Virus record (IMG/VR): IMGVR_UViG_3300045988_176431
Span: 64,001 to 128,000 of that record
Reading direction: 5' to 3' (one strand)
DNA: 64,000 nt
DNA from: a virus
The translations under genes and the position numbers were made by a program. The notes under the pieces are model-generated. The model did not search any database, was not told the DNA's origin, and saw only the letters and a list, made by a program, of their open reading frames with translations. This document shows positions 5,792 to 56,762 of the stretch, in pieces (within the stretch, counting starts at the first letter, position 1; the number at the start of each line of letters is the position of its first letter).

Positions 5792-5798
5792 AAAAGTT

Positions 5799-5838: not shown

Positions 5839-5875
5839 AATATTTTAAAAAAACAAAGAAAGGTAGGTAATAATT

Positions 5876-6424
5876 ATGATGAAAATGAATGAATTACCAC
5901 AAAATGTAACAAAAGAAACAAAGATTAAGCTAGTAACAAATCCAGAGAAAATTAATTCTGGTGATCCTGAAGAATTAGAAACTTTGGATGTTAAAGTACA
6001 TTATTCTGATTTAAATGATACTCTTTATATTATACCAGATAAAACAGAAAGTACAACATATGACAGTTTAGTAGCAGCGATGTACATGATCTGTTCTATG
6101 GTAGAAGACGAGTATCAAACATTAACAGAAACTGATAAAGAAGAAATACGTGAAGAGGAAGAGAAACATCAAAAAGAACAGGAGGAAAAACGACAAAAAG
6201 AGTTAAATGAAACTATTGAGAAATATTGTGAGGAAAGTCAAATTGAAATGATTGAAAAGATTCGATTCGTTAAAGTAAAAGATGGTGTGAATATAAAATT
6301 GAATCTTCTGAATATTATTACTGAAATCTCTGAATTGGAGAAAGATGATGATGGAAAATACATCGTTCCTGATAACTGTATTTATATTGAGCAGAGGGGA
6401 ACCAGAAACAGCTGGTACTTATAA
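5876..6424 (+). CDS. hypothetical acidic protein (182 aa)
   Basis: AAGAAAGGTAGGT RBS block, and a glutamate-rich central region. Confidence 0.55.
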   Translation: MMKMNELPQNVTKETKIKLVTNPEKINSGDPEELETLDVKVHYSDLNDTLYIIPDKTESTTYDSLVAAMYMICSMVEDEYQTLTETDKEEIREEEEKHQKEQEEKRQKELNETIEKYCEESQIEMIEKIRFVKVKDGVNIKLNLLNIITEISELEKDDDGKYIVPDNCIYIEQRGTRNSWYL

Positions 6425-10103: not shown

Positions 10104-10118
10104 TTGGAGGATATAGTT

Positions 10119-14571: not shown

Positions 14572-14577
14572 AAAAAT

Positions 14578-14613
14578 AAGGTAGTATGGTTTTTCCATAC
14601 TACCTTATTTTTA
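14578..14613 (+). terminator. rho-independent terminator
   Basis: AAGGTAGTATGG / CCATACTACCTT stem followed by ATTTTT. Confidence 0.65.
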
Positions 14614-14621
14614 TGACGGAT

Positions 14622-14660
14622 AAAGAACCACAAGGAGGGACAAGTTCCTTGTGGTTCTTT
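14622..14660 (+). other. second strong hairpin (15-bp stem) directly after the terminator
   Basis: AAAGAACCACAAGGA-gggacaagt-TCCTTGTGGTTCTTT, with no T tract. Confidence 0.4.
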
Positions 14661-14937
14661 CTCGAATATATAGTCAACATGTAATCATGATGTATACAAT
14701 TTACAGTGTGTCTGTCGTCGTAATCGATAAAATTTGCAAAGTTTTAAAAACATAATCAACAAAAAAGAGGAGTTTATCATTATCAGTCAAAAAAAACATC
14801 AGCATTTGAAAACCAAGCTTCTGTATACATATGATTTACATGAGTTTAGCCATTCATAAATCAAATTTTAAATTAATGTTAAAAAAAATAAAAGTAAAAA
14901 CTAAAATATAATTTATAAAGAAAGGATAAATAGTTTT

Positions 14938-18818: not shown

Positions 18819-21800
18819 TTGATTAAATATCTTAAAAATTATGCTTCTGAATTTGAAAGAGATTTAAATATTCCTCTTATGAACAAAGAAGCAGATAGAC
18901 CATTAGTTGAATATGTAATTGATTCATGGAAATCATTACAGATTCTTGATGGTATCGAATTTCTTGATTATGAGTATACAGAAAAAGAATCTGATATTGA
19001 GATTAATAAGTATATTTATAAACGTGAGAAAGGAAAACGCAAAAACGAGAAATTTGATTACAAATTTGTGGATGATAGTAGATGTGGACTTCTTACTGTC
19101 CGTATGAAATTATCTGCAATTGAAAAAGATTTCAAAACAGGTGATACGTATTTAAAAGAAAAAATTATTAAAAAGAGTATGTTGATTCCTTTACAGGATG
19201 ACAAAGGACTATTCTGTATCAAAGGAAAAAATTACTATTTGATTTAGTTTGATAGATCAAACAAAACTCTTCTAATTGCGGGGAACTCTCGTTAGGTCTT
19301 AACTACTAAACTAAGATGGTGACATACTTAGTGACAAGGGGTAACTCCTAAGGTATAGTAAAAAGGTTAAGAATAGAGACAATCGACGCAGCGAAGTATC
19401 TTATAAATAATAAGGTATAAGATATGAGTTCAACGACTATCGAAAGGATAGCATAAGAGAAATACTTATGTGAATAACTGAGTAGAGTAGACTAGTATAT
19501 ATTATACTAGGTGTACGAAATTGGTACTTTACGAAATGGAGAGCATATTATATTTGGTAATAGAATATAATGTGAAGATATAGTCTAATCCTCATGGATA
19601 ACATGATGGTGTAAATGTATCAGATGGTAGAAAAATCTACCTATACGTCAAATAATTCTGTTATTTTGAAATCTTTAATGCCTTTTATGATAAAAAGACA
19701 AATAACAAAACAGGAAGATATTCATGAAAATGAATATCAGATTCCTTATTATACCATTGATTTGTTTCGAAAAGATATTCCGATTATGCTTCTTTATGCA
19801 TCCAAAGGAATGAATCGTGCGTTACAATATGCTATTCAATCCTATCCTTATGTAGCAATTAACTTTGTTACAAAACCAAAAGAAACGGACAAAAAGCATA
19901 TTTATTTCCAGATATCTTCTAAGTTGTACTTAAAAGTACATAAGAAGTTATTTGAAAAGTTTCCATATATCCAATCCGTAGTTGGTGGTATTTTACATAT
20001 CTCAACGAATCGATTGACATTGGATAAATTGGATAATACAGATATCTGGATTAAGAAATTAAGTAATAATAACATTGAAAAAGGAAAGAATCTTTTAGAT
20101 TCTTTAAAACGTCTTTTAGATGTAACTACAAAGAAAATATTAAAAACAGATATATCAAACAAATTAGATGTACTTGCTGTTATTCGTTGGATGAGTCAAG
20201 ATTTCAATGAATTACGAATGAAAGATAATATGAATATTGAAAATAAGCGATTACGATGTAATGAATACATTGCATCTTTACTGACACAAGAATTTAGTAA
20301 GAAACTTAATCGTATTATGTCTCTAGGTGGAAAAGCAACCATTGATAATCTTAGAGAAATTTTCAAATTTCCAGGCGATAGAATTAGAGTGTCGCCGTTA
20401 AACCTATCTAATTGCGGGAAACTCTCGTTATGTTCTAGTTACTAAACTAAGATGGTGACATACTTAGTGGCAAAGGGTAACTCCTAAGGTATAGTAAAAA
20501 GACTAGAAATAGAGACAATCGACGCAGCGAAGTATCTTATAAGTATAAGATATGAGTTCAACGACTATCGAAAGGATAGCATAAGAGAAATACTTATGTG
20601 AATAACTGAGTAGAGTAGACTAGTATATATAAATACTAGGTGTACGAAATTTGTACTTTACGAAACGGTAGGCTCTTTATATTTGGTAATAGAATATAAA
20701 GATGAAGATATAGTCTAAACTTTATGGATAACATAGAGAATGATTCTAATTCAGAAGATGCATAGTAGTGGTGTATTCCGATTTGATGATAACATCAACG
20801 ATATGGATTTCTTTTCAAGGTTCAAATTCACGAATAAAGGACCTCACTCTGCAGGACAAAAGAATGGAAATAGTGTTGGTGTTAAGTACAGGGGTATGGT
20901 TGAATGCTCCTGTAAAACTCTTCTAATTGCGGGGAACTCTCGTTAAGTCTTAACTACTAACTTATGATAGTAATATACATAAGGGCAAGGGGTAACTCCT
21001 AAGGTATAGTAAAAAGGTTAAGAATAGAGACAATCGACGCAGCGAAGTATCTTCTATATATAAAATGGAAAGGAGGCAAAATCAAATGAAAAAAGTAATT
21101 GATTGTAAAAGAGTGATGCATGATAATATAAAATTAAATTATTTTATATTTACTGATGGAAGTATATTTAATGCTACAACTAATCATGAATTAAAACAAT
21201 ATAAAGATAAAGATGGATATCCTACAGTTTGTTTATCCAATAAAGGAAAACATTGGACAATTCATGTTCATCGATTAGTTGCGTTAACATTTATTCCAAA
21301 TCCATTAAATAAACCAGAAGTTAATCATATAGATGGTAATAAATCAAATAATGATATTAGTAATTTAGAATGGGTTACTGGAAGTGAAAATGTAAGACAC
21401 GCCTATCTCAATGGTTTACATGATAATGTAGCGATTGGTGAGAAACATGGTATGAATAAATATACTGAAAAACAAATTAAACATGTTTGTCAATTATTAG
21501 AAGAAAATTCTAATACACTCAATGAAATTGCTGAACTAACAAATGTTCCAAAATCAACAATTCATGATATTATATCAGAAAAATACTGGACTCATATTTC
21601 TAAAAAATATAAAATATCAAATTTTGATAAAAAATCTATTAGACGGTTAGATTCTCAAATGAAAAATGAAATGAGATATCTAATAAGAAAAGGATATCGT
21701 CAATGTGATATTTTAAGACATTTTAATTTAGAGACTAGTAAAAAGAATTATGGAATGATTAAAAGATATTATTATAAAATAAAAGAAGATACAAGTTCAT

Positions 21801-22381
21801 CGACTATCGAAAGTATAGGTTAAGAGAAATACTTAACTGAATAAACGAGTAGAGTAGACTGATCAATCAGGTGCACGAAATTGGTGCTTTGCGAAACGGA
21901 GAGCATATTATATTTGGTAATAGAATATAATATGAAGATATAGTCAGGTTATACAGTGATGTGTAAGTTTTAGATTCACCCATCAATGATTGGATATATT
22001 GATATGACTGTTTGCGGTAATTCTGACCCAGGCACATCGGGGCTTCTCTCGCCCTTTAGTAAGTTAAAAGGATTATCTTTTAATGATGATATGGAGCCAG
22101 ATAATTTTAAGTTTGAGTTCATAAAAGAGGTTAAGAAGATTATGGATGAAGAAGGAATTGATTATATTGATCTTGACTTTGAGAAGAAAGAAGATTACTA
22201 TTCCTTTGTCAATACTCTTCATGACTTTAATGTGGATAACATTCATGTCAATTATATTGAACGAGAAAAGGAATATGATAAAGTTATTCAAGAAGAGGAA
22301 GAAGATTTAGAAGAAACTTTATCATTCCAAAATAATAAACCAAAGAAGGATGATAAGAAAAAAGAAGCAAAGAAGAAATAA
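18819..22381 (+). CDS. multisubunit RNA polymerase beta-like subunit, N-terminal half (exons 18819-19244, 19618-20379, 20743-20895 and 21974-22381)
   Basis: Spliced junctions are ..FCIKGKNYYLI|YQMVEKS.., ..FKFPGD|ILIQKMHSSGVFRFDDNINDMDFFSRFKFTNKGPHSAGQKNGNSVGVKYRG and |IHPSMIGYIDMTVCGNSDPGTSGLL. These align with beta [63 protein letters not shown]. TTG start after AAAGGGGG. Confidence 0.8.
19245..19617 (+). mobile_element. group I intron 3 (373 nt, ORF-less)
   Basis: P1 is TTTGATT paired with GATCAAA, with a terminal U-G. The 3' splice site after G19617 is forced, because an in-frame TAA lies immediately upstream. Confidence 0.85.
20380..20742 (+). mobile_element. group I intron 4 (363 nt, ORF-less)
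   Basis: P1 is GGCGAT paired with GTCGCC. The 3' splice site after G20742 follows the P9 hairpin CTTTATG-gataa-CATAGAG. The alternative at 20736 is less likely. Confidence 0.8.
20896..21973 (+). mobile_element. group I intron 5 (1078 nt, carries an HNH endonuclease ORF)
   Basis: P1 is AGGGGT paired with GCTCCT. The 3' splice site after TAG (G21973) is forced by an in-frame stop. The junction KYRG|IHPS equals VRDVHPS. Confidence 0.85.
21086..21823 (+). CDS. intron-encoded HNH homing endonuclease, I-HmuI-like
   Basis: HRLVALTFIPNPLNKPEVNHIDGNKSNNDISNLEWVTGSENVRHA (HNH_3-like) plus an HTH, IAELTNVPKSTIHDIISEKYW. ATG 21086 follows GGAAAGGAGG. The last codons (..SSSTIESIG) run into the intron R element. 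Confidence 0.8.
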   Translation: MKKVIDCKRVMHDNIKLNYFIFTDGSIFNATTNHELKQYKDKDGYPTVCLSNKGKHWTIHVHRLVALTFIPNPLNKPEVNHIDGNKSNNDISNLEWVTGSENVRHAYLNGLHDNVAIGEKHGMNKYTEKQIKHVCQLLEENSNTLNEIAELTNVPKSTIHDIISEKYWTHISKKYKISNFDKKSIRRLDSQMKNEMRYLIRKGYRQCDILRHFNLETSKKNYGMIKRYYYKIKEDTSSSTIESIG

Positions 22382-33668: not shown

Positions 33669-33803
33669 GTAAGTTTACTTTACTTACTTAACACAAATAT
33701 ATTATATAAATATGATATTTAATTATACACATAGTTTTCTCTTATCTATCTTTTTATGTTAGATTTGACAAGTTTTTAAGTAAATTTGAAAGGGGAATTG
33801 ATA

Positions 33804-36800
33804 ATGAGTCAAGAGAATTTATATTTAGAAGAATATACAAAAGAAATGACTGACTTTTTAAAGAAATCAAATCCTAATATTGATAAAAAGGAAATAAAGA
33901 AAATCGTAAAGAAAACGATAAAAGAAAGATTACAAGACCCAGAGGTTATTCTGGATAATAACTATACACACGAAACAAGAAAAACTCATTTAACATCAGT
34001 TCTTCATTGGGCTATGTTAAAGAATCCTATTATTGCAGGAAATGGTACATTTTATAAACAACATAATGTAGCCAGAAATCCAAATTCAGAAATGGTAGAT
34101 GACTTCTTGGATGATAGAAAGAAATTAAAAAAAGCAATGTTTGCAGTTGATGATGAAGCAAGTCATGCTTATAAAGATTTAGACTTAAAGCAAGGAAATA
34201 AAAAACGATTAGCAAATTCTTATTATGGTGGGTCAGGAGCAAAAACTTCAGCATTCTATTCAAAATGGAGTGGACCTGCTACAACAAAAAGTGCTCAATC
34301 AGTTATCTCAACAACAGAAACAGTATTTGAAGCATTTCTTGTGGATAATTTTATTTTTATTGATTTTAATGAATGTGTCACATGGATTGATACTGTACTT
34401 TCTGAAGATTATGAATTAGATGATTGGGTAGAAAGAATCAGTTTGGAAGATTGTCATAAACGACTTTCTAATAAGATTCTTGGTGTTACAGATGATATGA
34501 GTGAACTTCTCATGAAATATCTTTCATCTTTAACCGAAGAGGATTGGACACATCTTTATTATAAAAATAATTTAATAGAATTTACAAGAAGACATGAGAA
34601 AGTAAGAAAACTTCATGATTCTATCTTTAGTTCGATTCGTAATGATTATTATGAATTTTCAGTAAATAAAGATGGTGGATTTGAAAATGAATCCGATATT
34701 GCAAAAATCCCAACAGAAATGAGGGATGATATTTTAGGTGATAAAAAACCGGGAAAAGCATGGAATAAATTTGTATCTGTGCAAAAATTCTATGATCCAA
34801 ACAACGTTCCAGACACTATTAAAGAATACTTAGAAGAACTTTCAAATATTTATATGAAATATATATACGTGAGATTTCTTCATTTAGATAAAATCTATCG
34901 ATTAAAGAATTTTAATCGTGACGTTGTTACAGTTATTGATACAGATTCAAACATCTTATCATTAGATACATGGATGAAATTCTGTCAGACAGAATTAATG
35001 ACAAGTGATTATGGAAGAGAATATTTTGACAATGTATATATTGCAATTAATTCTATTACATACATCATTACATCAGTCGTTACTGATATTCTTTTATATT
35101 ATGGAGAATGCTCGAATGTAGAAGAAAGTCATCGACCAAGATATAATATGAAGAATGAATTCTTCTTTAGTAAATTAATTATTGCAAAAACAAAGAAACG
35201 ATATTTATCTCAGATATTACTTCGAGAAGGAAATCGACTTAAAAAACCGAAAACAGATGTTAAGGGTTTAACGTGTAAATTGTCAACGTTACATACAAGA
35301 CCCAATACTAAGCGATTAGTATTTAAAAACAAGGTGAATTGCGGGGAACTCTCGTTATGTTCTAACTACTAAACTAAGATGGTAACATACTTAGTGGCAA
35401 TGGGTAACTCCTAAGGTATAGTAAAAAGGTTAGAAATAGAGACAATTCGCAACCAAGTTATTTATTAAAAAGATATATTTATATATTATACTTCTAAAGG
35501 AAGGTGATTATAATGAATAATAACGAAAAAATAAATCAAAAAGATATGAAGGAAATAATTAAGAAGATAAATTCTTCTATATGTTTTATTGATGAAAAAT
35601 TTAAGCAATTATATATTGATGAAGAATATATACCATATATAATTTCATCAACTGGTAGAATATTTAGTATTAATTATATGCATCAAAAAGGAAATGTACA
35701 TGAATTAAAAAGTAGAACAGATAAAGATGGATATAAATTAATATTAATACATTATAATCATAAAAATTATGGTTATCATATACACCGTTTAGTTGCTTTA
35801 ACATTTATCCCTATTCCTATTAAATATAGAAAGCAAGGATATAGTAGTAATGATTTACAAGTGAATCATAAAGATGGAAATAAATCTATAAATTGTGATT
35901 GGAATTTAGAATGGTTGACTTGTAAAGAAAATATTCATCATGCTTGGAAAAACAATTTAGCACATTCTATTGGTATATATAATGGAAATAGTGTATACTC
36001 TAATGAAGATATAGAAACAGTTTGTAAATTATTAGAATCAGACTATTCTATTAAACAAATTAGCAAAAAAATAAATGTTCCATATTACATAATATCTTTA
36101 GTATTAAATAAGAAAAATTGGCTACATATAAGTAATAATTATGACTTTAGTAATTATTCATATGGAAAGAAAAAAAGAAAAGATGTTATAAATGTGTGTA
36201 AACTGTTAGAGAAAGGTGAATATAGTATAAAAGAAATAAGTAAAATTTGCAATGTAAAAACTTCATTTGTAAGTGATATTTCATCTGGAAAAACATTTAA
36301 ATCAATATCTAAAGATTTTAATATAAATATATCTTGTAATAAATAAAAGGTTCAACGACTATCGAAAGGATAGCATAAGAGAAATACTTATGTGAATAAC
36401 CGAGTAGAGTAGACCAGAAGTCTGGGTGCACGAAATTTGTGCTTTACAAAGTGCCTTGCATCTTCTATTTGGTAACAGAATATGAAGATGATGATATAGT
36501 CTATTCTCAATTGTAAAATTGAGGAGTTATTTATAACTCAGTATAACTTAACGAATTATACTAAATAAAAAGTTGACTTTAAGAAATCAGTTACATCAGA
36601 AACAGCATCGAAGTATTATATGAATATTATTAAAGAATATCTTCTTGAACCGGAAACTCCGTTATTAAAAGAAATGATTAATGAACTGCATGAATTTAAA
36701 AAACGTATCAAGAAATCTATTGAAGATGGCGAACGGATTTATTTACCAAATGCAAATGCAAAAGAACTTGGTGCTTATAAAGACCCAAGTACATCACAAG

Positions 36801-37231
36801 GTGTTCGTGGTGTATTAACATGGAATATGTGTGAGCCGGATAAAATGATTGAATTTCCTGCTAAAGTAAGTTTATTAAAAATGAACTTAGAAAATGAGGA
36901 ATCAATAGAAGATATGAAAGATAAATTCCCAAATCAATACAATGCAATTAAAGAGGGAATTTTTAATGATAAAACAGGTATTTTTATTAAAGAAAAGAAA
37001 GATAAAAAAACAGGTAAAAAAGAATTAAAGAAAACTGGTATGAAAGTGTTAGCAATCCCATCAAGTGAAACAATACCTGATTGGGCATTACCATATATCG
37101 ATTATAATACTATGGTAAATAATATATTAGCACCGTTTAAATCTGTTTTGGAAATCTTTAATCTTCCAGGAGTAGAAGAAGGAAAGACTGGAAGAAAATC
37201 AACAGGACTAAGTAATATTATAAAATTATAA
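33804..37231 (+). CDS. family B DNA polymerase, polymerase-domain part (exons 33804-35268 and 36573-37231)
   Basis: KKRLANSYYGGSG (motif B, Kx3NSxYG), VTVIDTDSN (motif C, DTDS) and KTKKRYLS (KKRY). The junction is ..KPKTDVKG-F-DFKKSVTSE. ATG 33804 lies 8 nt after GAAAGGGG. No exonuclease motifs or motif A lie upstream. Confidence 0.8.
35480..35489 (+). promoter_or_regulatory. TATATATTAT motif, copy e (inside intron 6, upstream of its endonuclease ORF)
   Basis: Exact 10-mer 24 nt upstream of ATG 35513. Confidence 0.3.
35513..36346 (+). CDS. intron-encoded HNH homing endonuclease, I-HmuI-like
   Basis: YIISSTGRIFS (NUMOD4-like), HRLVALTFIPIP...QVNHKDGNKSINCDWNLEWLTCKENIHHA, and two HTH repeats (ISKKINVPYYIISLVLNKKNW and ISKICNVKTSFVSDISSGKTF). 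AAAGGAAGGTG RBS. Confidence 0.8.
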   Translation: MNNNEKINQKDMKEIIKKINSSICFIDEKFKQLYIDEEYIPYIISSTGRIFSINYMHQKGNVHELKSRTDKDGYKLILIHYNHKNYGYHIHRLVALTFIPIPIKYRKQGYSSNDLQVNHKDGNKSINCDWNLEWLTCKENIHHAWKNNLAHSIGIYNGNSVYSNEDIETVCKLLESDYSIKQISKKINVPYYIISLVLNKKNWLHISNNYDFSNYSYGKKKRKDVINVCKLLEKGEYSIKEISKICNVKTSFVSDISSGKTFKSISKDFNINISCNK

Positions 37232-42948: not shown

Positions 42949-43725
42949 ATGGTCCCATTTCAAACATTAAGTGAATTCGTTGAAAATCCTTTTGGTATTT
43001 CTGATACTAAAAAACGAAATACACTAGAAGAAAAGTATGTAAAAATGAAATCAAATTCAAAATTCAAAGTAGAAGGATTTACTACGATTGATGATGATTA
43101 TTTGATTCATGTAATGGTTCCATCCGATTCGAATTCAAATCAATCTTATGATGTCGTTGTTCTTTTCTTTACTGATGATACTGTCGTAAAGAAAAGAACA
43201 ACCTTTTCAAATTATTATGTGAAGTTCTTTTCGAATTCACCTAGCTTTATTTATCAATATGCTTATCTTTATCGAGAAAATGGTTTCTTAATTGATTTTC
43301 TTTATGATAAGTTAGATGATAATTTTAGTTCTCAGGCACCAACAAAGTCAAATAAGAATATGGATTTATTTTATGATAAATCCATATATTGTGCTTCTCG
43401 TTTGATTCTTGATAATGGTGGTATTCTTTTAAGCAAACTTGGTATTATTACAAAGCATAAAAAGAATAAAGATAAATTCTTTCGAGATATTAAATCTTTT
43501 GAGAATATTAAAATGACATCGGAATTAAAATCTGTTGATAAAAAGATTAATAAAGAATTGGAAGAGAATAAAAAAATAAAGAGAAAAGAAAAGTCAAAAC
43601 AAAAGGCTCGTTCATCCAATAAGATTATGGCAAAGTCAAATACCTTGTCAAAGAATTCGAAACCAGGAATCACAAAAGTAAAAAAGAAAACAGGCAACAA
43701 AAAAGTAGTTTCTCGAAGAAAATAA
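42949..43725 (+). CDS. hypothetical protein with a Lys-rich C-terminus (258 aa)
   Basis: TTGAGGTG RBS. Confidence 0.5.
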   Translation: MVPFQTLSEFVENPFGISDTKKRNTLEEKYVKMKSNSKFKVEGFTTIDDDYLIHVMVPSDSNSNQSYDVVVLFFTDDTVVKKRTTFSNYYVKFFSNSPSFIYQYAYLYRENGFLIDFLYDKLDDNFSSQAPTKSNKNMDLFYDKSIYCASRLILDNGGILLSKLGIITKHKKNKDKFFRDIKSFENIKMTSELKSVDKKINKELEENKKIKRKEKSKQKARSSNKIMAKSNTLSKNSKPGITKVKKKTGNKKVVSRRK

Positions 43726-43740
43726 ATTTTATATAAAATT

Positions 43741-43750
43741 TATATATTAT
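43741..43750 (+). promoter_or_regulatory. TATATATTAT motif, copy f
   Basis: Exact 10-mer about 35 nt upstream of the RBS of the four-intron gene. Confidence 0.4.
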
Positions 43751-43782
43751 TTATTTGGAATAAAAAATATAAGAAAAAGGGG

Positions 43783-46700
43783 ATGAAATATTTGCCAGTT
43801 AAAAAATCTAATCCAGTAGAGGAAATTGATCGCTCAAAATTAAAGAGCAAAATCAATATCTGGAAACCAAAGAAATCTGAGATTATAGTGGAACAAGATG
43901 GAAATATTTTTGTCTGTCATTTTGACAAGATTTTCAATCAACCAAATCTCAAACCCTTAACTAAATTTATTATTAAAAAATCTAGTTATATCAACCAATT
44001 ACCAGTCATTACAAGGTATACAAACTTTTTCATGAATTGTTATGATACAGAGAATGACTTAGCAATGGCTTATTTGAAGATTAAGTATGCTCTTGATAAA
44101 GAGAGAGTATTTAATGAAACAAATACTTCTGCATTAATTGATATGATATATGAGATTCTTTTTACACCAAGGCTTTGTGAAAAGATTACTCGTATGGTAG
44201 AAGAAAATTACTTAGATGATATCGAAAAAGGGGATGGAAAGAAATATAAAAAGAATAAAGACTACTTAGAAAGTCTTGAATTCACCAATGAACATATTAA
44301 GATTCTTCTTAGAATCTCATTTGGTATTAAAATCATGTCACCGATTCTTTTTCATTATCTTACGATTAATAATATGAATAAGTTGGATAAAGACAGTGAT
44401 TTGATTTACAAGTTCTATGAAAGACTGTTTCCTTTGTTCTCCGGAAACGTCAATATGTTTAATAAGCTCTTTGTTTATTGTAAAACAAAAGTACTGGATG
44501 CATCTGCACATAACAGTACAATCTTTGAACAAAGAGAAATTTTTGGTGTAGATAAGTATTCAGTTATTGATAAATTTGTGAGAAAAGTAATTATCTCAGA
44601 AAACATGGTTAAAGTATTTGATCATGTAAAACCTCTCTAATTGCGGGGAACTCTCGTTAGGTCTTAACTACTAAACTAAGATAGTGATATACTTAGTGGC
44701 AAGGGGTAACTCCTAAGGTATAGTAAAAAGGTTAAGAATAGAGACAATCGACGCAGGGAAGTATCTCTTATGAGATATGGCTTCATCGACTAGGGAAAGA
44801 CTAATTTATATTAATTAGAATCGAGTAGGTCCAATTATAGGACGAAATGTAGGTGAGTATATATAATATATACAAAAATCCGAAACGGGAGGCATTGATA
44901 TATTTAGTAATAGAATATATTAATGAAGATATAGTCAGTGTAATATAAAAACATGAAATACTTGTTCAATGAACACTGGGATAGACGTTTCATGTTCCAG
45001 TATAAAAACCTCTCTAATTGCGGGGAACTGTCTATAATGATTATTTACTAAACTAAGATGGTGACATACTTAGTGGCAAGGGGTAACTCCTAAGGTATAG
45101 TAAAAAGAATAATCATTGACACAATCGACGCAGCGAAGTATCTTATATGAGATATGAGTTCAACGACTATCGAAAGTATAATTATAAGAGAAATCTTATA
45201 ATGAATAAACGAGTAGAGTAGACTGATTTAATCAGGTGCATGAAATTGATGCTTTACGAAACGGGAGGTATTGATATATTTGGTAATAGAATATATCAAT
45301 AAAGATATAGTCTAATTAAAATAGGTGAAACAGAAAAAATACAAGGAGAACATTGTTGGATCAATATTAGGTTCAACCAAAACCTCTCTAATTGCGGGGA
45401 ACTATCTATAATTAATAACTACTAAACTAAGATAGTGATATACTTAGTGGCAAAGGGTAACTCCTAAGGTATAGTAAAAAGGTTATTAATTGATACAATC
45501 GACGCAGCGAAGTATCTCTTATGAGATATGAGTTCAACGACTAGGGAAAGCTAGACAACCATATTGATAGAAATATCTAAAAGAATATAATATTCTGATG
45601 GTTTGATGTGAGTAGGTCCAATGATAGGACGAAATGTAGGTGAGTATATATAATATATACAAAAATCCAAAACGGGAGGTATTGATATATTTGGTAATAG
45701 AATATATCAATAAAGATATAGTCTACATTGAAAAATGTGTTAATAAAACGATTAATTTAATAGTCGCAATGATATAAAGAAATTTATATCTGGACAAACC
45801 ATCCTAATTGCGGGGAACTCTCGTTAGGTCTTAACTACTAAACTAAGATAGTGATATACTTAGTGGCAAGGGGTAACTCCTAAGGTATAGTAAAAAGGTT
45901 AAGAATAGAGACAATCGACGCAGCGAATATGCTTTGAAATAAATAATAACATGTAAAGAAATAGGAGATAGATTAGGAATGACAAGAAATGCTGTTTGGA
46001 ATATTAAACAAAAAATAAATTAAACAAAATCAAAGCATAATGTTCAACGACTATCGAAAGTATAGGTTAAGAGAAATACTTAACTGAATAAACGAGTAGA
46101 GTAGACTGATTTAATCAGGTGCACGAAATTGGTGCTTTACGAAACGGATGGCGTATTATATTTGGTAACAGAATATAATACGAAGATATAGTCTAACCTA
46201 TGTAGTGATATATGGTATAAGTGTATTAAATTTCAGATGAATTATTTTCTTAAGGAGCAGTATGAGAAAACAATGACCGAGATTTCTAACACAAAAAATA
46301 GTGATGGATTATCCGGTCAAGATAAAATGGAAATGAATTTGACTAAGATTGATGAAGGTATCACAACTCTTAGTGAGTTCAATATTAAGAATTGTATTGA
46401 ACGTATTCAAAGAGAGATTGATATTCCAATCTCAGATGAAGAAATTCAATATTATAGGGACCATCATATTCCTAGCCCTATTCAGATTCAATTGGTATAT
46501 TCGTACTTTGCAGAATATTTTACGGATTATCGTGATTTGAACCTTTTAACAAGAAGAGATTATCTTCATTTATTACTTTTATTAAAGAAGAAACTCTTAA
46601 TTGAGGCTGGATATGATGAGAAAGAAAATGAATTTACAGATGCGATTCTTCCATATATTCTAACAGGAAATTTGGAAGAAAAAGTTTCTACTCGAATGAT

Positions 46701-46941
46701 TCGAAACAACAAGTTTATTTCAAAGATTGAAACGAATTATATGTATCAACAGTTAGTAGAAAAGAAGTATAAGCATCTGCAAGAATTAAAGAAAGACTAC
46801 ATATTACAAGTATTATCTTCGATTATCAATACGAATTTTACTTATGTAGTTTATGAGGAACCTGAAATGTTAGGAAAACCAATTGTTTATAATGAAGATA
46901 AAATCTCGGATGAACTCTTGTTTTTCTTAAAATGTATTTAA
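43783..46941 (+). CDS. hypothetical protein interrupted by four tandem group I introns (exons 43783-44610, 44956-44982, about 45325-45361, about 45738-45752, and about 46224/46237-46941)
   Basis: The ORF 43783-44640 runs into the intron P element, and the ORF ending at 46941 resumes after intron 10. The first three 5' splice sites are well supported. The last two micro-exon boundaries and their reading phase could not be resolved by hand. The start may be TTG 43792. Confidence 0.5.
44611..44955 (+). mobile_element. group I intron 7 (345 nt, ORF-less, type-B 3' half)
   Basis: P1 is CATGGTT paired with GATCATG. The 3' splice site after ..AACATG gives the in-frame 27-nt exon KYLFNEHWD. Confidence 0.75.
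44983..45324 (+). mobile_element. group I intron 8 (about 342 nt, ORF-less, type-A 3' half)
   Basis: P1 is CTGGGAT paired with GTTCCAG (7 bp, terminal U-G). The 3' end is provisional. Confidence 0.7.
45362..45737 (+). mobile_element. group I intron 9 (about 376 nt, ORF-less, type-B 3' half with an extra insertion)
   Basis: P1 is GTTGGAT paired with GTTCAAC (7 bp, terminal U-G). The 3' end is provisional. Confidence 0.7.
45753..46236 (+). mobile_element. group I intron 10 (about 484 nt, extended P1-P2 variant, degenerate ORF remnant in P6)
   Basis: The core P/Q/R/S elements are intact. P1 is only CGAT paired with GTCG, placed by analogy with introns 2 and 6. Both ends are provisional. A mini-ORF lies at 45979-46023. 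Confidence 0.6.
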
Positions 46942-46950
46942 TGTAAAGAA

Positions 46951-46995
46951 GAATTATGATAGAAAGTTTTTACTTCTATCATAATTCTTTATTTT
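46951..46995 (+). terminator. rho-independent terminator
   Basis: GAATTATGATAGAAAGT / ACTTCTATCATAATTC stem followed by TTTATTTT. Confidence 0.6.
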
Positions 46996-47019
46996 ATGGA
47001 GGAAAGGAATGAATGAAAT

Positions 47020-47742
47020 ATGTTATACTATGTAGACACAGAATTTACAAATTTAGGAAAAGATGCAGAACTTATTAGTATTGGAGTGATTAGTGAAAAA
47101 GGAGATTCCTTTTATGCAATTTTAAGTGATTATAATAAGGAAAAATGCTCTGACTTTGTAAAAGAGAATATTCTTCCAAAATTAGGAAAACCAGGAATTA
47201 GTGAAAGAATTGTAAGTAGTAAAAAATTTATACTTAAAAGTTACAATACTGTGGATAGTACTAAGAAAAATGTAAGAGAAAGATTACTTAAGTTTTTAAG
47301 TAGAATAAGTGATTATACCACTTTTGTTTCAGATGTTTGTCATTATGATGGTGTATTAATATTTGACTTACTGATGGATGAAAGAACAAAAGAATTACCA
47401 AAAAATATCAATCCGATGGTAATTGATATATCAACGGTTCTTTTCTATCAGAGATTTAGAGTAGAAAAAGAATTGGAGAAAAATGGTGTAAAAGAAAAAT
47501 CGACTGATACAAGTGAAATTGAAAAATATGCTTTTGATAAGACAAGAGAAGACCTTGTGGAAAATCTGGAAATATTTGGTACAAAAACTGAAAATAACGA
47601 AGATTACAAACATAATGCATTGTGGGATGCTTTTGTGATTTCATCAATTTCTAAAAAGTTCATATCAAATACAGTAAATCTTGCATTTGAGTCAGTATTG
47701 TATGGTGATATTATGGAATTAATCAAAGAAAGGATGAATTAA
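47020..47742 (+). CDS. DEDDh (DnaQ/RNase T-like) 3'-5' exonuclease
   Basis: N-terminal YYVDTEFT (Exo I, D-x-E) and C-terminal HNALWDAF (H-x4-D, Exo III). Confidence 0.6.
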   Translation: MLYYVDTEFTNLGKDAELISIGVISEKGDSFYAILSDYNKEKCSDFVKENILPKLGKPGISERIVSSKKFILKSYNTVDSTKKNVRERLLKFLSRISDYTTFVSDVCHYDGVLIFDLLMDERTKELPKNINPMVIDISTVLFYQRFRVEKELEKNGVKEKSTDTSEIEKYAFDKTREDLVENLEIFGTKTENNEDYKHNALWDAFVISSISKKFISNTVNLAFESVLYGDIMELIKERMN

Positions 47743-51335: not shown

Positions 51336-52750
51336 TGAGTAAAGAATTAAAAAATAATATTGAAGAAAGAATCCAACGTAAAATTAGTAGACTTATAGAC
51401 TTACATCATGCGTCACCTGAAATTGCAGTTTATCCTGCAAAAAGTGAATTTCCATATATTGATGGACTTAAAATATCTAAAATTCACTTTAATAAACCAA
51501 AAAAACAAGATTTTATTACAGATGAATCCAATTATTCTATAGAATATTATTATGATGGAGTAACTGGTTCTCTTTCTAACATTAAGATTGGATGTGATGG
51601 ATATTTAGTATTTGATGATATTAAGTTATCAATAATATCATCAGAGTTAATTATAAAGTCATTGATTGATACAAATGAAATTTATAAAGATACTCTTACT
51701 ATGGTATGTGAAGATGGATACACATATATAACACCAAAAAATATTACTGTTGATACTAGTATGTATTATCGTTTTATACATGAAGCAGATGATGAAATTA
51801 TTTGTTCTTTAGATGGAATATTACTCAAACATCTGCAGGCAATGGATGCGTTCTTACATACTTACATTAAGTTAGTCAAAGAAAAACGACGAGAAATTGA
51901 TGAAAACTCTGAATTTAATATCGCGAAACAAATGAGAGAGATGTTTTCAGAATATATTAATATACAGAATATTGATATGAAAACCAGTTTATCAAATGTG
52001 AAAGAGCAATTAAGAAAATCATTATTAGATAAAACTTTACCATCCATAGATGGTAAACCAATCATTATGAGTACGGATGAAGTGACACATGTTTCTCCAT
52101 TATTTATTGAGAGATGGAATGATTTATCAAATAAAGAAGAAACAAAAAATAAGGAGGAAAAGAAAATGATAGTAAATAAAATGTATTACGATGCAATAGC
52201 TGATGATGAAAAACGAATTGAAAAGATTGAAAAAGAGATTGAAACCAATTTAGAAAAATTAAAGGAACTTGGTTTTGCAGAAAAGGTCATTTACTCAAAT
52301 GTAGCACTTCAGGAACCTCTTCATGAAGTTTTGAAATTACAAGAAAAACCAAATAGTGAAGAGAATAAATTTGTGAGTTTTATTCCAAATAGTAATGAAT
52401 ATGAATTATATATACTAGAAGATGGTAATTATACGCTTAATGTAAAACCAAAAGGGTCAATTACTTTTATTGGAATTGACTTAAATAAATTGGAAAAAAT
52501 CTTAACGATTGTAAAAAGAATTAATGATCCTTCTCCAAATATGCGATTGACTGTAGATTATACAAGTTTTACTTGTTCTATTATGCCAGCTCCATATGGT
52601 AAGAAATTAACAGAAAAAGAAACTCTTGATATTTTATTTGGAAGAGCCAAGAAAATCAATCGTGAGATTCAGACTGCAATCTTTGATGTCAACGATCTTC
52701 TCTTAGTTACTAAAAGATTATTAGAGGCAGTGACATCAGAAGAAGAGTAA
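51335..52750 (+). CDS. hypothetical protein (471 aa)
   Basis: ATG overlaps the upstream stop (TAATG). AAGGAGG RBS. Confidence 0.55.
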   Translation: MSKELKNNIEERIQRKISRLIDLHHASPEIAVYPAKSEFPYIDGLKISKIHFNKPKKQDFITDESNYSIEYYYDGVTGSLSNIKIGCDGYLVFDDIKLSIISSELIIKSLIDTNEIYKDTLTMVCEDGYTYITPKNITVDTSMYYRFIHEADDEIICSLDGILLKHLQAMDAFLHTYIKLVKEKRREIDENSEFNIAKQMREMFSEYINIQNIDMKTSLSNVKEQLRKSLLDKTLPSIDGKPIIMSTDEVTHVSPLFIERWNDLSNKEETKNKEEKKMIVNKMYYDAIADDEKRIEKIEKEIETNLEKLKELGFAEKVIYSNVALQEPLHEVLKLQEKPNSEENKFVSFIPNSNEYELYILEDGNYTLNVKPKGSITFIGIDLNKLEKILTIVKRINDPSPNMRLTVDYTSFTCSIMPAPYGKKLTEKETLDILFGRAKKINREIQTAIFDVNDLLLVTKRLLEAVTSEEE

Positions 52751-52853
52751 TTTAAAGTTAATTAAAATGAGATGATTATCATACGTCTTGTGAAGAATAC
52801 TTCAGAATTAAACAGTAAGTTTTCTTTATGTAATATTATTATGAGACTGAAAT

Positions 52854-52902
52854 ATGTGAAGTCAAATATCTATAATTGGATATTTGACTTCACATTATTT
52901 TA
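52854..52902 (+). terminator. hairpin or terminator upstream of the beta'-N gene
   Basis: 17-bp stem ATGTGAAGTCAAATATC / GATATTTGACTTCACAT followed by TATTTT. Confidence 0.55.
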
Positions 52903-52925
52903 AAATTTTATTTAATAAAAGGAGT

Positions 52926-55900
52926 GTGATTTTTGTTTTGGGTAAACAAATTGTAAGAATCAATCGACTCAGTTGGGATATTTTATTTTATGATGATATG
53001 ATAAATGGTGATGGTTTTATCATATCAGAACCTGCTGAAGTAAAAATCGATCGAGAAAGAAAAAAGTCTCTTTATGGTCCACAATCTCCACTCTATGGTA
53101 CAACGTATTCAGATGAGCAGGCATTTATTGAACGTTATCGTTGTGAGTGTGGAAATTTTAAAGGAAGACAATTTGCAGGGGAAGTATGCCCCATTTGTAA
53201 AACAAAAATTGAAAGTAAAGGAAGTAATGTAAAAACAACAGGATGGATTTGTACCGGAAATGCAAGATTTATTAATCCATTCTTTTATCAGCTTCTTGTA
53301 AAAGCGATTGGAAAGAAAATCTTTCCAGATATTATTGATTGTAAACAACGTGTCGATACAGATGGACACCGAAGTCAATATGTACCAGAAGATACAGAAC
53401 CACTTTCTCCTTATTCTGGATTTGGTATTGAAGAATTCATGAACCAATATGAAAATATTCTTACTTATTTTCAGACAGTAAGAAAACAAAAATACGATGA
53501 TCTTCAATATCTAAAAGAGAACAAATCTAAAGTATTTGCTTCTCATATTCCGATTTATACGACAATGTTACGTCCGCAAAGTGTCACAAGTGATACTTTT
53601 TATTTTAATGGTATTGATCGAGAAATCAATCCTCTCTTTAATCTTTCAGAAAGTATTAAAGATTGTAATCCAATTGAGCGTCCATTTATCTTACAAAGAA
53701 TACAAGAGCGTGTAAACAACATCTTTGAATTTAACTTTGATATGATTAATGGTAAAGAAGGATGGATTCGAGGAAAACTATTAGGTGGCTCGTTAGTGCG
53801 TTATAATTTGACGAGCTTTATAAACTCATCTAATTGCGGGGAACTCTCGTTAAGTCTTAACTACTAAACTAAGATGGTAACATACTTAGTGGCAAGGGGT
53901 AACTCCTAAGGTATAGTAAAAAGGTTAAGAATAGAGACAATCGACGCATCGAAGTATCTTAATATTATTATATATTTATAAGAAAGGTGGTGAGATAATG
54001 ACGTCACATATTATAAAATTTAACAACATGGACAGTGATTATGTCATTTATGAAGATTGCACAATTATTAATATAAAAACTAATCATATTATGAAACATC
54101 GAATAAGTAAAAGTACAGGACGAGTGTATGTTCGTTTAACTAATAATAAAAAAAGAAAAGAATATAGATTATCAAGATTAATGGCTACATATTTTGTAGA
54201 AAATCCTGATCCAAAAAATAAAGTTGATGTTCATCATAAAGATAAAAATGTATTAAATAATGTACCAAGTAATTTGCAATGGGTTACAAAAGAAGAACAT
54301 TATTTGATACATAAAGGTGATAAAAATCATCCATTTTCTAGTGGTGAAAATCATAGTGGTGCTATATTAACTAATGATCAAGTACATGAAATATGTAAAT
54401 TGATTCAAGATAACATTATGTCTCAAAATGATATTGCGAGAAAATATAAAGTAATGCCACATGTTATTCATGAGATTCGTTTAAAACATAATTGGAATGA
54501 AATAACAAAATATTACGATTTTTCAAAATATTCGTATGGGAATAATTTTCTAAAAGATGATAAAGTAAAAGAAATTTGTTATCTGATTGAATCAAATAAG
54601 TATACATTGATGGAAATATCAAAAAAATCAAAAGTTACTTATTCTACAATTCTTGATATTTATCATAAAAAACGATATAAAAGACTAAGTGATAATTATG
54701 ATTTTGATAGATTCAATAAGTTAACAAGATATAGCAAAGGACTTAAGAAAAAAATAAATTTTTTAATTAATGAAGGAAAATCAAATAATGAAATTAAAAA
54801 TATATTAAAATTAGATAATTGTGCAAAAACGAATACTCTATTGTGTAGAGAAAGAAAGAAATCAAATCAATAAAAAAATAATATTAAGATATGAGTTCAA
54901 CGACTATCGAAAGTATAGCATAAGAGAAATACTTATGTGAATAAACGAGTAGAGTAGACTAGTATATATTATACTAGGTGCATGAAAATTGATGCTTTAC
55001 GAAACGGTGAGTGTATTATATTTGGTAACAGAATATAATATAATGATATAGTCTAAACTTCTATGGATAACATAGAGAATATTTGAAATTATACGGCTCG
55101 TAACGTAATTATTCCAGATCCATCTTTACATGATGGGGAAATTGATGTATCTTATCATACATTTAGAATCTTATTTAAATATAAGATTATTTATTATATG
55201 ATGAAGATTAACGACATACAGTTATCAAAAGCATATCATAAATGGAAGAATAGTTATAAGTTTAATCAACACATTTATGAAATTATGTTGTACATCTTAA
55301 AGAAAGAAAAACCAAGAATATTAATCAATCGAAATCCGACACTAATAGAAGTTTGGTGTCATTAAACTCTTCTAATTGCGGGGAACTCTCGTTAAGTCTT
55401 AACTACTAAACTAAGATGGTAACATACTTAGTGGCAAAGGGTAACTCCTAAGGTATAGTAAAAATGTTAAGAATAGAGACAATCGACGCAGCGAAGTATC
55501 TTCAATATATAAAAATACTATAGTAATTGAGAGGTGATAAATATTGCCAAAGAAAAGAAAGAAATTAAGTGAATTTCTTTTATCATATTATAAATTAATA
55601 GAAGAAAGTGATGAAAAAGAATTATGGAAAGATATTAATTTAGGAGACTTCCCAATATACCAAATAAGTAATCATGGTAGAGTTCGAAGGAAAGATAGTA
55701 AATTCATAATTAATCCTTTTCATTCTTATCGAAAAGATAATAATGGTAACTTTAGATATGATAGACCAACTTATCTCAGAGTTCAATTATATTATTACAC
55801 TAATGGGGTAAGAATGAAAAAACATATGGAAATAAGTAGGCTTGTTGCAATAAATTTTATACCTATACCAAAAATATATACTGATAAGGGATTAGATGAG

Positions 55901-56762
55901 AATTCTTTAGAAGTAAATCATATAAAAGGTGGTTATGAAATTTACAATAATTTTGTATCAAATTTAGAATTGTGTACAACAAAAGAAAATGTAAAAAAAT
56001 CAATTGAAACAGGTTTGAGACATTCACCGTATGGAGAGAATCATCATAATACATTTTTTACAGAATATGATGTGATGCAAATATGTGAATGTATTGAAAA
56101 AGGTTTTAATGCAAAGTATACTTATTATAATATTGATTTATCTGATAAATCAATAACATATGATCATTTTAAACAAAATTTTTATAGTATAAAATATAAG
56201 AAATCTTGGAAATTTATAAGTCAAAATTATAATTTTTAATTTATTGAAGATATGAGTTCATCGACTAGGGAAAGCTAGACAACCATATTGATAGAAATAT
56301 CTAAAAGGACTCCACATCCTGATGGTTTGATAAGCGAGTAGGTCCAATCATAGGACGAAATGTAGGTGAGTATATATAATATATACAAAAATCCGAAATG
56401 GAGAGCAATGATATATTTGGTAACAGAATATATTAATGAAGATATAGTCAAACTGTATAGAGATATACTAGATTTATTGGAATTTCTATTCATTACTTTT
56501 AATGAAAATAAGAAATGTAAAAAAGGATGATACAGATTTTACATTATCGGTTCCACTTGCGATTTTACCGGGATTAAATGCCGATTTCGATGGAGATGTT
56601 CTTAATATGCTTGGTATGATGAATGAAGAATTCGTGAGAATGTTCAGAAAGTTTGACCCAATTAAGCGAATGATTATTTCAAGAGATACCGGACTTATCA
56701 ATAATTATTTTACAATTGAAAAGTCACAATTGATTGATTTATATCATTTTGCTACAGTATAG
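52926..56762 (+). CDS. multisubunit RNA polymerase beta'-like subunit, N-terminal half with the catalytic NADFDGD loop (exons about 52926-53794, 55086-55343 and 56480-56762)
   Basis: Zn finger RCECGNFKGRQFAGEVCPICKTKIE. Junction GKLLGGS-L-NYTARNVIIPDPSLHDGE equals LLGKRVDYSGRSVIvvGP.L. Junction LINRNPT-L-NFYSLLL...LSVPLAILPGLNADFDGDVLNM equals LLNRAPTLHR...NADFDGDQM. The track start TTG 52884 lies inside the hairpin; GTG 52926 or TTG 52938 follow AAAAGGAG. Confidence 0.8.
53795..55085 (+). mobile_element. group I intron 11 (1291 nt, carries an HNH endonuclease ORF)
   Basis: P1 is GCTCGTT paired with GACGAGC (7 bp, terminal U-G), giving phase 2. The only compatible 3' splice site is after G55085, because TGA lies in frame just upstream. 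Confidence 0.85.
53998..54873 (+). CDS. intron-encoded HNH homing endonuclease, I-HmuI-like
   Basis: SRLMATYFVENPDPKNKVDVHHKDKNVLNNVPSNLQWVTKEEH, plus HTH repeats (IARKYKVMPHVIHEIRLKHNW and ISKKSKVTYSTILDIYHKKRY). AAAGGTGGTG RBS. Confidence 0.75.
   Translation: MTSHIIKFNNMDSDYVIYEDCTIINIKTNHIMKHRISKSTGRVYVRLTNNKKRKEYRLSRLMATYFVENPDPKNKVDVHHKDKNVLNNVPSNLQWVTKEEHYLIHKGDKNHPFSSGENHSGAILTNDQVHEICKLIQDNIMSQNDIARKYKVMPHVIHEIRLKHNWNEITKYYDFSKYSYGNNFLKDDKVKEICYLIESNKYTLMEISKKSKVTYSTILDIYHKKRYKRLSDNYDFDRFNKLTRYSKGLKKKINFLINEGKSNNEIKNILKLDNCAKTNTLLCRERKKSNQ
55344..56479 (+). mobile_element. group I intron 12 (1136 nt, carries an HNH endonuclease ORF, type-B 3' half)
   Basis: P1 is GACACT paired with GGTGTC, giving phase 2. 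The 3' splice site after G56479 is the best stop-free solution. The alternative after G56512 would delete 11 aa. Confidence 0.75.
55544..56239 (+). CDS. intron-encoded HNH homing endonuclease, I-HmuI-like (shorter)
   Basis: YQISNHGRVRR (NUMOD4-like) and SRLVAINFIPIP...EVNHIKGGYEIYNNFVSNLELCTTKENV. TTG start 7 nt after GAGAGGTG. Confidence 0.7.
   Translation: MPKKRKKLSEFLLSYYKLIEESDEKELWKDINLGDFPIYQISNHGRVRRKDSKFIINPFHSYRKDNNGNFRYDRPTYLRVQLYYYTNGVRMKKHMEISRLVAINFIPIPKIYTDKGLDENSLEVNHIKGGYEIYNNFVSNLELCTTKENVKKSIETGLRHSPYGENHHNTFFTEYDVMQICECIEKGFNAKYTYYNIDLSDKSITYDHFKQNFYSIKYKKSWKFISQNYNF

Follow-up and report, generated by a model that had tools for sequence, protein, structure and literature searches.

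Predicted tandem group I introns separated by micro-exons in a putative sigma-like RNA polymerase gene of an uncultured gut jumbo phage

Introduction

Several phage genes are already known to hold more than one group I intron, and the array described here is an extreme case in its density. It lies in the IMG/VR virus record IMGVR_UViG_3300045988_176431, of which positions 64,001 to 128,000 were analysed (64,000 nt with a G+C content of 28%, hereafter the window) and which appears to derive from an uncultured human-gut jumbo phage with its own RNA polymerase. Within this window, four candidate group I introns follow one another inside a putative gene for a sigma-like RNA polymerase subunit, leaving between them exons so short that we refer to them as micro-exons.

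Multi-intron genes have been described in phages such as Staphylococcus phage Twort, whose orf142 contains three self-splicing group I introns and shows exon skipping (Landthaler and Shub 1999, cited in PMC11878797). As far as that secondary account goes, the likeness lies in several phage-type group I introns in one protein gene of an intron-rich genome, and the difference in the four introns found here (six in a sister strain), exons as short as 13 nt and a jumbo-phage sigma-like host gene. Introns of Twort-like and phage K-like staphylococcal phages share ~75% identity with the 5' core of the introns here over 126-150 nt. In Bastillevirinae, up to three introns occur per gene, most of subgroup IA and many with endonuclease genes; cDNA of the phiNIT1 ribonucleotide reductase gene showed a small exon between two introns, and a terminase splice form skips an internal exon (PMC11878797). 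Those structures are backed by RNA, whereas the present one comes from sequence only; the present array is, in turn, denser and its four introns are without endonuclease genes.

Other uncultured gut phages resemble the one studied here in that numerous group I introns break up their core genes. In the crAss-like Zeta group, a genome can hold as many as 14 introns and a capsid gene is split into five fragments (PMC7886860); in Jug phages the count is ~18.5 per genome (PMC12880540). In those cases the interruptions came to light mainly through endonuclease domains or short model matches and the exons are large, whereas the present locus combines base-exact predicted splice sites and 13-37 nt exons with an AR9-like lineage possessing multisubunit RNA polymerases. 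Fungal mitochondria offer tandem group I introns split by an 18-nt exon (cob-201; PMC12308204). There, as here, tiny exons between neighbouring introns put separate, stepwise or single-unit splicing in question, although organellar introns are usually protein-aided and carry LAGLIDADG or GIY-YIG genes, in contrast to an endonuclease-free phage mRNA with long P1 + P10 guides. Finally, group I introns occur in RNA polymerase subunit genes of other jumbo phages. The endonuclease of the PhiPA3 gp210 intron acts in competition between co-infecting phages (PMC11620839), and the AR9 g189 intron contains g190 (PMC5312081). These are single introns with an endonuclease, whereas four to six are stacked here in a sigma-like subunit gene, none with one.

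No account of this phage lineage was found in the literature searched, and none of a phage gene in which four to six mapped introns leave exons of 13-37 nt. An earlier, sequence-only reading of the window had known of no described bacterial or phage gene with four adjacent group I introns. The density indeed exceeds that of the other phage cases found, but multi-intron phage genes, small exons and mitochondrial tandems are all published.

Results

Four introns interrupt a single reading frame

Four predicted complete group I introns of 345, 342, 378 and 471 nt lie inside 44611-46223, on the + strand like all features of the gene given below. Joining 43783-44610, 44956-44982, 45325-45361, 45740-45752 and 46224-46941 removes them and closes the frame, with exon lengths (828 + 27 + 37 + 13 + 718 = 1623 nt) that correspond to 540 codons plus a stop. 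The introns fall within 77 coding nt. Exon 1 (43783..44610, 828 nt, codons 1-276) gives a gapless protein alignment and ends in ...AAC ATG GTT. Exon 2 (44956..44982, 27 nt) encodes KYLFNEHWD, covering a family-invariant K, Y and F, and exon 3 (45325..45361, 37 nt) encodes VKQKKYKENIVG plus the first base of a Phe codon. Exon 4 (45740..45752, 13 nt, TTAATAAAACGAT) supplies Phe bases 2-3, then N, K and T, again family-invariant, and Ile bases 1-2. Exon 5 (46224..46941, 718 nt including the stop) begins with T ATT AAA TTT CAG ATG, in which the ATG at 46237 is an internal Met rather than a gene start.

Intron 1 (44611..44955, 345 nt) has its P3-P7 core at 44632-44936, ends in ...ACATG and is without an endonuclease gene. 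Intron 2 (44983..45324, 342 nt) has its core at 45009-45312 and ends in ...AATAG; intron 3 (45362..45739, 378 nt) has its core at 45383-45723, followed by a P9 hairpin (ACATT-GAAA-AATGT) and the terminal G45739; and intron 4 (45753..46223, 471 nt) has its core at 45799-46193 and ends in ...AAGTG. All four end in G (...CATG, ...ATAG, ...TGTG and ...AGTG). A twintron arrangement was considered and rejected, as the introns stand side by side and the 27, 37 and 13 nt between them code for conserved residues.

Across the micro-exon block, the spliced protein reads NMV/KYLFNEHWD/VKQKKYKENIVG(F)/NKT(I)/IKFQMNYF (slashes mark exon junctions) and aligns to NMVKYQFPEHWDAKQKKYKENIIGFNKTIIKFQMHYF of the intron-less homologue P0001 with no gap; the two proteins are 78% identical. 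A search of public proteins returned 497 relatives, and most of the 120 listed are intron-less, 520-620 aa long and cover 95-100% of the query. Because such intron-less homologues align gaplessly through the micro-exon block, the two open reading frames (ORFs) flanking the array are parts of one gene, contrary to the possibility, raised by the sequence-only reading, that they are separate genes. This corrects the annotation, in that gene callers give a 285-aa ORF and a 222- or 234-aa ORF in place of a predicted 540-aa sigma-like factor. The predicted spliced junctions are ACATGGTT/AAATACTT, CTGGGAT/GTGAAAC, GTTGGAT/TTAATAA and AACGAT/TATTAAA, and the predicted mRNA across the micro-exons is ATCTCAGAAAACATGGTTAAATACTTGTTCAATGAACACTGGGATGTGAAACAGAAAAAATACAAGGAGAACATTGTTGGATTTAATAAAACGATTATTAAATTTCAGATGAATTATTTTC.

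The four tandem cores were where the earlier reading had placed them, and its 5' splice sites (after 44610, 44982, 45361 and 45752), its 27-nt and 37-nt exons and the first two 3' splice sites were recovered. The remaining sites, which could not be made frame-consistent by hand, are now fixed, with intron 3 ending at G45739 and intron 4 at G46223. From the proposed final-exon starts of 46208, 46224 and 46237, frame and guide duplex single out 46224, and 46237 is lost as the internal Met. The array had been taken to run to 46236; its real span is 44611-46223, since intron 4 ends at G46223.

Each intron has an intact core of the phage IA type

The P4 motif AATTGCGGGGAA occurs at 44639, 45016, 45390 and 45806 and the J8/7-P7 motif GAAGATATAGTC (one mismatch allowed) at 44925, 45301, 45712 and 46182. 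Across the window either motif is matched 12 times, always on the + strand, where chance would give 0.4-0.6. Introns 1-4 also matched the full Rfam model RF00028 (1-253) at 37.4, 43.6, 34.4 and 37.3 bits; region-only searches put the E-values between 3.6e-8 and 1.7e-6 (intron 2 also E 3.1e-9), and the match to intron 4 ends at 46215, 8 nt short of the 3' splice site. With a P1, a P10, a 5' splice-site U facing a guide G and a terminal G in each, all four elements are read as complete group I introns.

A core structure including the P3/P7 pseudoknot was drawn by hand and counted on 12 aligned introns, namely the four, three others from the window, two from the related locus L004 and three from the related locus L048. 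In this alignment 95.9% of cells were paired and both-side changes were seen in 32/64 pairs, values matched by 0/500 shuffles, while slid controls had 33-45% of cells paired. P3, P4, P5, P7 and the two closing P6 pairs were 100% paired in 12/12 introns, and the main P6 stem reached 97.2%. Co-variation was evident in P3, which pairs CCAUCC with GGAUGG in intron 4 and CCUCUC with GGGAGG in introns 1-3, and in P6 of intron 1, where a C-G pair has changed to G-C in a compensatory manner. Introns 1-4 carry an insertion of 80-130 nt between the P7 5' strand and the P3 3' strand (the place of P7.1/P7.2), one hairpin of which is backed by compensatory changes. The long P5 extension together with this P7.1/P7.2 insertion marks the introns as phage IA type. 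DNA matches in the GenBank phage collection were limited to intron cores of Staphylococcus and Enterococcus phages. The longest stretch common to the introns is 132 nt at 97% identity and is not an exact repeat.

Continuous guides define the splice junctions

Every intron has, near its 5' end, a continuous guide of 13-16 nt, of which the 3' part is the P1 strand and the directly adjoining 5' part the P10 strand. The upstream exon ends in T at all four 5' splice sites, where it pairs with a guide G (U.G). Exon base pairs in P1 number 8, 8, 7 and 4 for introns 1-4, intron 4 adding 2 intron base pairs, and those in P10 number 8, 7, 6 and 9. The guide of intron 1 (44612..44627) consists of P10 AAGTATTT (44612-44619) and P1 GATCATGT (44620-44627), and its exon 1 partner is the final 8 nt of that exon, ACATGGTT. 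With the ligated junction ACAUGGUU/AAAUACUU it forms 16 continuous bp at -19.1 kcal/mol, and none of the shuffled junctions was as good (0/2000). The intron 2 guide (44987..45001; P10 GTTTCAT, P1 GTTCCAGT) pairs with ACUGGGAU/GUGAAAC (DNA ACTGGGAT/GTGAAAC) over 15 bp at -21.2 kcal/mol (0/2000 shuffles as good), and the intron 3 guide (45365..45377; P10 TATTAG, P1 GTTCAAC) with GUUGGAU/UUAAUA over 13 bp at -12.1 kcal/mol (2/2000). For intron 4 (45754..45766; P10 AATTTAATA, P1 GTCG), the duplex with CGAU/UAUUAAAUU (DNA CGAT/TATTAAATT) comprises 13 bp at -12.2 kcal/mol (0/2000); ahead of the first step, the partner of TAGTCG is exon CGAT together with intron TA.

The cognate junction was better than every exon-skipping combination, skips being weaker by 5-11 kcal/mol. 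G45739 and G46223 gave the best guide-junction duplex among all Gs downstream of P7, and G46223 was the sole candidate with both the frame restored and the -12.2 kcal/mol duplex. The sequence-only reading had asked how P1 and P10 could each form from a few exon nucleotides, and exon 4 provides an answer. Its first 6 nt form P10 of intron 3 and its last 4 nt P1 of intron 4 with no overlap, and because separate nucleotides are used the two helices do not compete.

Guides and exons also co-vary between loci. At site 3, exon GTTGGAT faces guide GGTTCAAC in the window and GTTGGGT faces GGCTCAAC in L050. At site 4, CGAT faces GTCG in the window, CCAT faces GTGG in both L050 and L034, and AGACTAT faces GTAGTCT in L048. 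At site 1, the window's ACATGGTT and GATCATGT are replaced in L048 by TGTGGTT and GGCCACG. Guides that track silent exon changes at shared sites in this way constitute comparative evidence that the predicted P1 helices are functional.

Near-identical phages differ precisely in intron content

The human-gut assembly L058 (ENA ERZ918921, run ERR636388) is 100% identical to the window over 43000-47500. Other close relatives differ from it by the exact presence or absence of introns. L001 (~96% identical) is precisely without intron 1, exons 1 and 2 being joined as ...AACATGGTA AAG TAT TTG TTC..., and three silent changes, including loss of the splice-site T, surround the empty site. L004 (IMGVR_UViG_3300045988_176405, 249 kb) holds six introns at 3829-6270, the same four plus one after ...CAGATGAAT and one after ...GGACAGGAT. 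Its exons of 828, 27, 37, 13, 19, 81 and at least 561 nt place six introns within 177 coding nt, and its spliced protein differs from that of the window by two residues. The exons of the window and L004 show 27 nt differences in 1566 nt, 24 of which are synonymous. Five of the 27 are silent and lie within 10 nt of the sixth site (CDS 996-1014, ~46315-46333), which is empty in the window; such a cluster is expected from co-conversion in intron gain or loss, or from exon-guide co-adaptation. Empty sites in nature were found for site 1 (in L001) and for L004's fifth and sixth sites (in the window). An allele without introns 3 and 4, sought in IMG/VR with a degenerate DNA pattern for window residues GFNKTIIKFQM, was not found, and a scan of JGI metagenomes with exon 1 gave two distant loci only.

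Some further features of L001 were observed. The first 10 nt of intron 1 (44611-44620, AAAGTATTTG) equal the start of exon 2 in this intron-less allele (L001 6599-6608); the exon 2 start AARTAYTT is a degenerate palindrome, and in the allele with the intron, the exon owes its complementarity to the intron 1 P10 strand to two silent changes (AAG TAT to AAA TAC). At L001 6590-6901, the intron at site 2 consists of the 23-nt intron 2 guide on a body that is 95% intron 1-like and 85-87% intron 2-like, which could be a true guide/body mosaic or a path switch of the assembler.

Among the IMG/VR loci encoding the protein, 12/53 have at least one intron, and over these loci seven insertion sites were counted (residues ~234, 276/277, 285/286, 297/298, 302, 308/309 and 335/336). 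L048 (1250-2850), L050/L051 (3750-5030) and L037 (3950-4660), whose proteins are 47-60% identical to that of the window, contain five, three and two introns, some of them at sites used in the window. An exon of 13 nt lying between two introns is seen again in L004, in L048 (TTAATAAGACTAT) and in L050/L051 and L037 (TCAACAAAACCAT), and the L048 micro-exons carry many synonymous changes relative to the window with the residues kept. Introns of distant relatives tend to resemble introns of their own genome over same-site introns elsewhere (a rough comparison, some boundaries being approximate), which suggests concerted evolution or within-genome spread.

One locus, L064, had been taken for a version of intron 4 with an intact 313-aa endonuclease gene. 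This was rejected, as L064 (1-4089) is an assembly chimera with another RNA polymerase gene, in which window 52049-53953 (a polymerase gene and the 5' half of its intron) is joined to 45804 onward via the shared core. Several short contigs likewise stop inside the conserved core, at 44665 or 44755.

The host gene resembles the sigma-like subunit of AR9

The spliced 540-aa protein had no Pfam match, but matched PHROG 25005 'RNA polymerase' with E 1e-20. A profile of the family matched only PDB 7S01_A/7UM0/7UM1 (E 3.5e-23, residues 17-461 of 464), a chain occurring in three entries, among them 7S01 and 7UM0, which are holoenzyme complexes of the AR9 non-virion RNA polymerase. We take this chain to be gp226, the sigma-like promoter-specificity subunit, judging from its length of 464 residues and its occurrence in those complexes. 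An AlphaFold model of P0001 (mean pLDDT 77), standing in for the spliced protein, matched 7S01_A in Foldseek with E 1e-15 and probability 1.00, with no other significant match. AR9 gp226 has a sigma2-like domain at residues 184-264 and a sigma-finger at 265-294, and the sigma-like subunit is single-copy in the AR9 non-virion polymerase (PMC9209446, PMC7598289). Homology spans both gp226 domains in profile and structural model, making the product of the host gene a gp226 homologue and, by extension, a putative promoter-specificity subunit of a jumbo-phage non-virion RNA polymerase. By profile alignment, the micro-exon block corresponds approximately to gp226 residues 233-258, the end of the sigma2-like domain, and falls in 30 residues (P0001 270-299) that are, in a tie, the family's most conserved (0.84 versus a mean of 0.67).

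In the same alignment, gp226 V206, the residue that keeps thymine out of the -10 deoxyuridine pocket in AR9, corresponds to a Thr in this family (spliced residue ~246, window ~44518-44520), an observation that says nothing on uracil-containing DNA or the mode of promoter recognition in these gut phages.

The GenBank phage collection held no close relative, the best protein match, 25% identical, being to Bacillus phage BpSp. Going upstream from the sigma-like gene, a 258-aa ORF comes first and then, two genes away, a GroEL/Cpn60-type chaperonin gene (PF00118, 40824-42932); in the AR9 record, as far as its gene numbers go, g228 (GroEL) is likewise near g226. Genes for beta-like RNA polymerase subunits are also present in the window, and the GroEL-like gene and split beta-like genes place the phage among the AR9-like jumbo phages. 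Related contigs are 220-290 kb long.

Endonuclease content and other introns of the window

None of the four introns contains an ORF of at least 60 codons (the longest has 58 codons) or an endonuclease gene. Intron 4 has a P6 insertion (45928..46040, +) closed by a stem of TATGCTTTGA with TCAAAGCATA, which is missing from the 382-nt intron at the same site in L004. Within it, a 26-codon open frame (45943-46020, IITCKEIGDRLGMTRNAVWNIKQKIN) gave weak Pfam helix-turn-helix matches only (best HTH_23, E 9e-4, below the curated cut-off) and is probably a remnant of the DNA-binding helix-turn-helix of an endonuclease.

The window has 12 introns of the same family, all on the + strand. The eight outside the array, with approximate splice sites, are at ~3247-4512, 11292-11611, 19235-19617, 20370-20738, 20905-21947, 35337-36503, 53819-55059 and 55363-56467. 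Their hosts are RNA polymerase beta-like genes (2376-5791, 10104-12771 and 52884 onward), a 'polymerase' gene (18819-22381) that holds three introns, and DNA polymerase B (33786-37231). All 12 thus reside in genes for polymerases, namely four of RNA polymerase or polymerase-like type, the sigma-like gene and the DNA polymerase. Five of the eight contain ORFs of 231-305 aa (3429-4346, 21065-21823, 35504-36346, 53998-54873 and 55544-56239) with HNH_3 and/or NUMOD4 domains and repeated helix-turn-helix motifs, which are probably nicking homing endonucleases of the I-HmuI type. These five HNH endonucleases could mobilise the endonuclease-free introns in trans.

A thirteenth intron, considered at the ORF-free stretch 14571-14938 for its near-match to the P7 motif, was rejected; only weak hairpin-like Rfam matches were obtained there on both strands, and the hairpin is probably a terminator. 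ARAGORN found no tRNA genes in window 1-64000.

Discussion

We consider it very probable that the array consists of four independent, guide-directed, self-splicing group I introns within a sigma-like gene, with the micro-exons retained. Four paralogous phage-type introns would have colonised four sites inside the most conserved block of the gene, which would be transcribed as a single precursor. Each intron would then fold its own P3-P8 core with a P3/P7 pseudoknot. P1 would form between the 3' part of its guide and the final 4-8 nt of the exon upstream, with U.G at the splice site, and P10 between the 5' part of the guide and the initial 6-9 nt of the exon downstream. Two-step transesterification, started by guanosine, would remove the introns separately, probably in 5'-to-3' order as they are transcribed, so that the 27-, 37- and 13-nt exons would stay in the mRNA. 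Because the four introns are without an endonuclease gene, their gain and loss among strains would be best explained by recombination when related phages co-infect a cell, perhaps with help in trans from the HNH endonucleases of five sister introns in the genome.

Several points weigh against this interpretation. All of the evidence is computational, and from it we infer splicing as such, its order and its fidelity. All four RF00028 scores (34-44 bits) are under the family gathering score of 50, and an Rfam scan of the window at the gathering threshold listed two other introns and none of the four. Introns 1-4 are, nevertheless, 75-97% identical to the window copies at 19235 and 20370, which score 59.9 and 57.1 bits, and the long P5 and P7.1/7.2 insertions cost RF00028 score. 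In intron 4, P1 consists of just 4 base pairs with the exon and 2 within the intron; a P1 with four exon pairs is short, though not unprecedented, as the tRNA intron of Azoarcus makes do with three. Introns 1 and 2 have weak P9 stems. P3 strands are identical in introns 1-3 and P7 strands in all four, making mis-pairing between neighbouring introns, and hence exon skipping, physically possible. Finally, the sequence comes from short-read metagenome assemblies, in which repeated cores do cause chimeras, as in L064.

These identical strands also bear on the possibility that the array acts as a composite unit or undergoes heavy exon skipping, its main product being without some or all micro-exons, for example through excision of 44611-46236, much as certain tandem twintrons of fungal mitochondria are spliced out as a single unit. 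Exon 1 joined to ATG46237 would stay in frame, AR9 gp226 is itself 11 residues shorter in this block, and both exon skipping by phage group I introns (PMC11878797) and splicing of a tandem intron as one unit (PMC12308204) are published. Skipping would, however, delete invariant residues from a stretch tying for the most conserved in the family, and the micro-exons are under purifying selection in the window, L004, L048 and L050, where changes are synonymous. The intron 1 guide pairs with later exons at only -8.1 to -8.7 kcal/mol, compared with -19.1 for its own junction. At the mapped 3' sites, skipping exon 3, exon 4 or all three shifts the frame and only a skip of exon 2 alone keeps it; a product without the micro-exons would join ...ATGGTT directly to ATGAATTAT. 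We regard this explanation as improbable, although, given the identical P3/P7 strands and documented phage skipping, some exon skipping remains plausible as a minor outcome alongside removal of the four introns one by one.

It is very unlikely that the introns are decayed, non-splicing relics and the gene a pseudogene or two separate polypeptides. The missing endonuclease genes, the 26-codon remnant in intron 4 and the low RF00028 scores would fit such decay, but P3, P4, P5 and P7 are fully paired in all four introns and P6 almost so, with changes compensated, and the guides match their junctions over 13-16 bp. Strain differences in the exons are almost all synonymous (24/27 nt), and the protein corresponds to a subunit that is single-copy in the AR9 non-virion polymerase (PMC7598289, PMC9209446).

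Least credible is an assembly artefact, in which a short-read assembler stitched together repeated cores of several genes; L064 is exactly such a chimera and many short contigs stop inside the core at 44665 or 44755, but the three micro-exons are unique and in the correct order and phase for a conserved protein, which a random mis-join would not give, the same order is found in L004 (IMG/VR) and L058 (ENA; possibly the window's own source), three more distant lineages have introns flanking a 13-nt exon at the same place, and the introns share no exact repeat over their longest common stretch.

A bolder proposal, which we put forward tentatively and hold to be unlikely, is that the array is more than a parasitic load: a single resident family of introns may have re-targeted itself, largely through changes of guide, to 12 or more sites in the transcription and replication genes of this phage, with additional effects of stacking. 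Intron bodies may have been exchanged from site to site, or the introns may have spread ectopically in the manner of reverse splicing. Pointing this way are the 5' half of intron 4, 97% shared with intron 1, the intron 2 guide on an intron 1-like body in L001, and introns that are closer to those of the same genome than to same-site introns of distant phages.

The locus provides base-exact predicted splice sites for the densest phage group I intron array found in the literature searched, and its alleles with fewer, four and six introns at 96-99% identity make it a ready-made experimental locus. It is well suited to asking how near-identical neighbouring ribozymes avoid mis-pairing and exon skipping, what minimum exon length can serve P10 of one intron and P1 of the next, and how endonuclease-free introns are gained and lost. 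If the re-targeting proposal were true, four to six stacked introns could tie late transcription to serial guanosine-dependent splicing, and the stack could protect the most conserved stretch against HNH endonucleases brought in by co-infecting relatives, in the manner of PhiPA3 competition.

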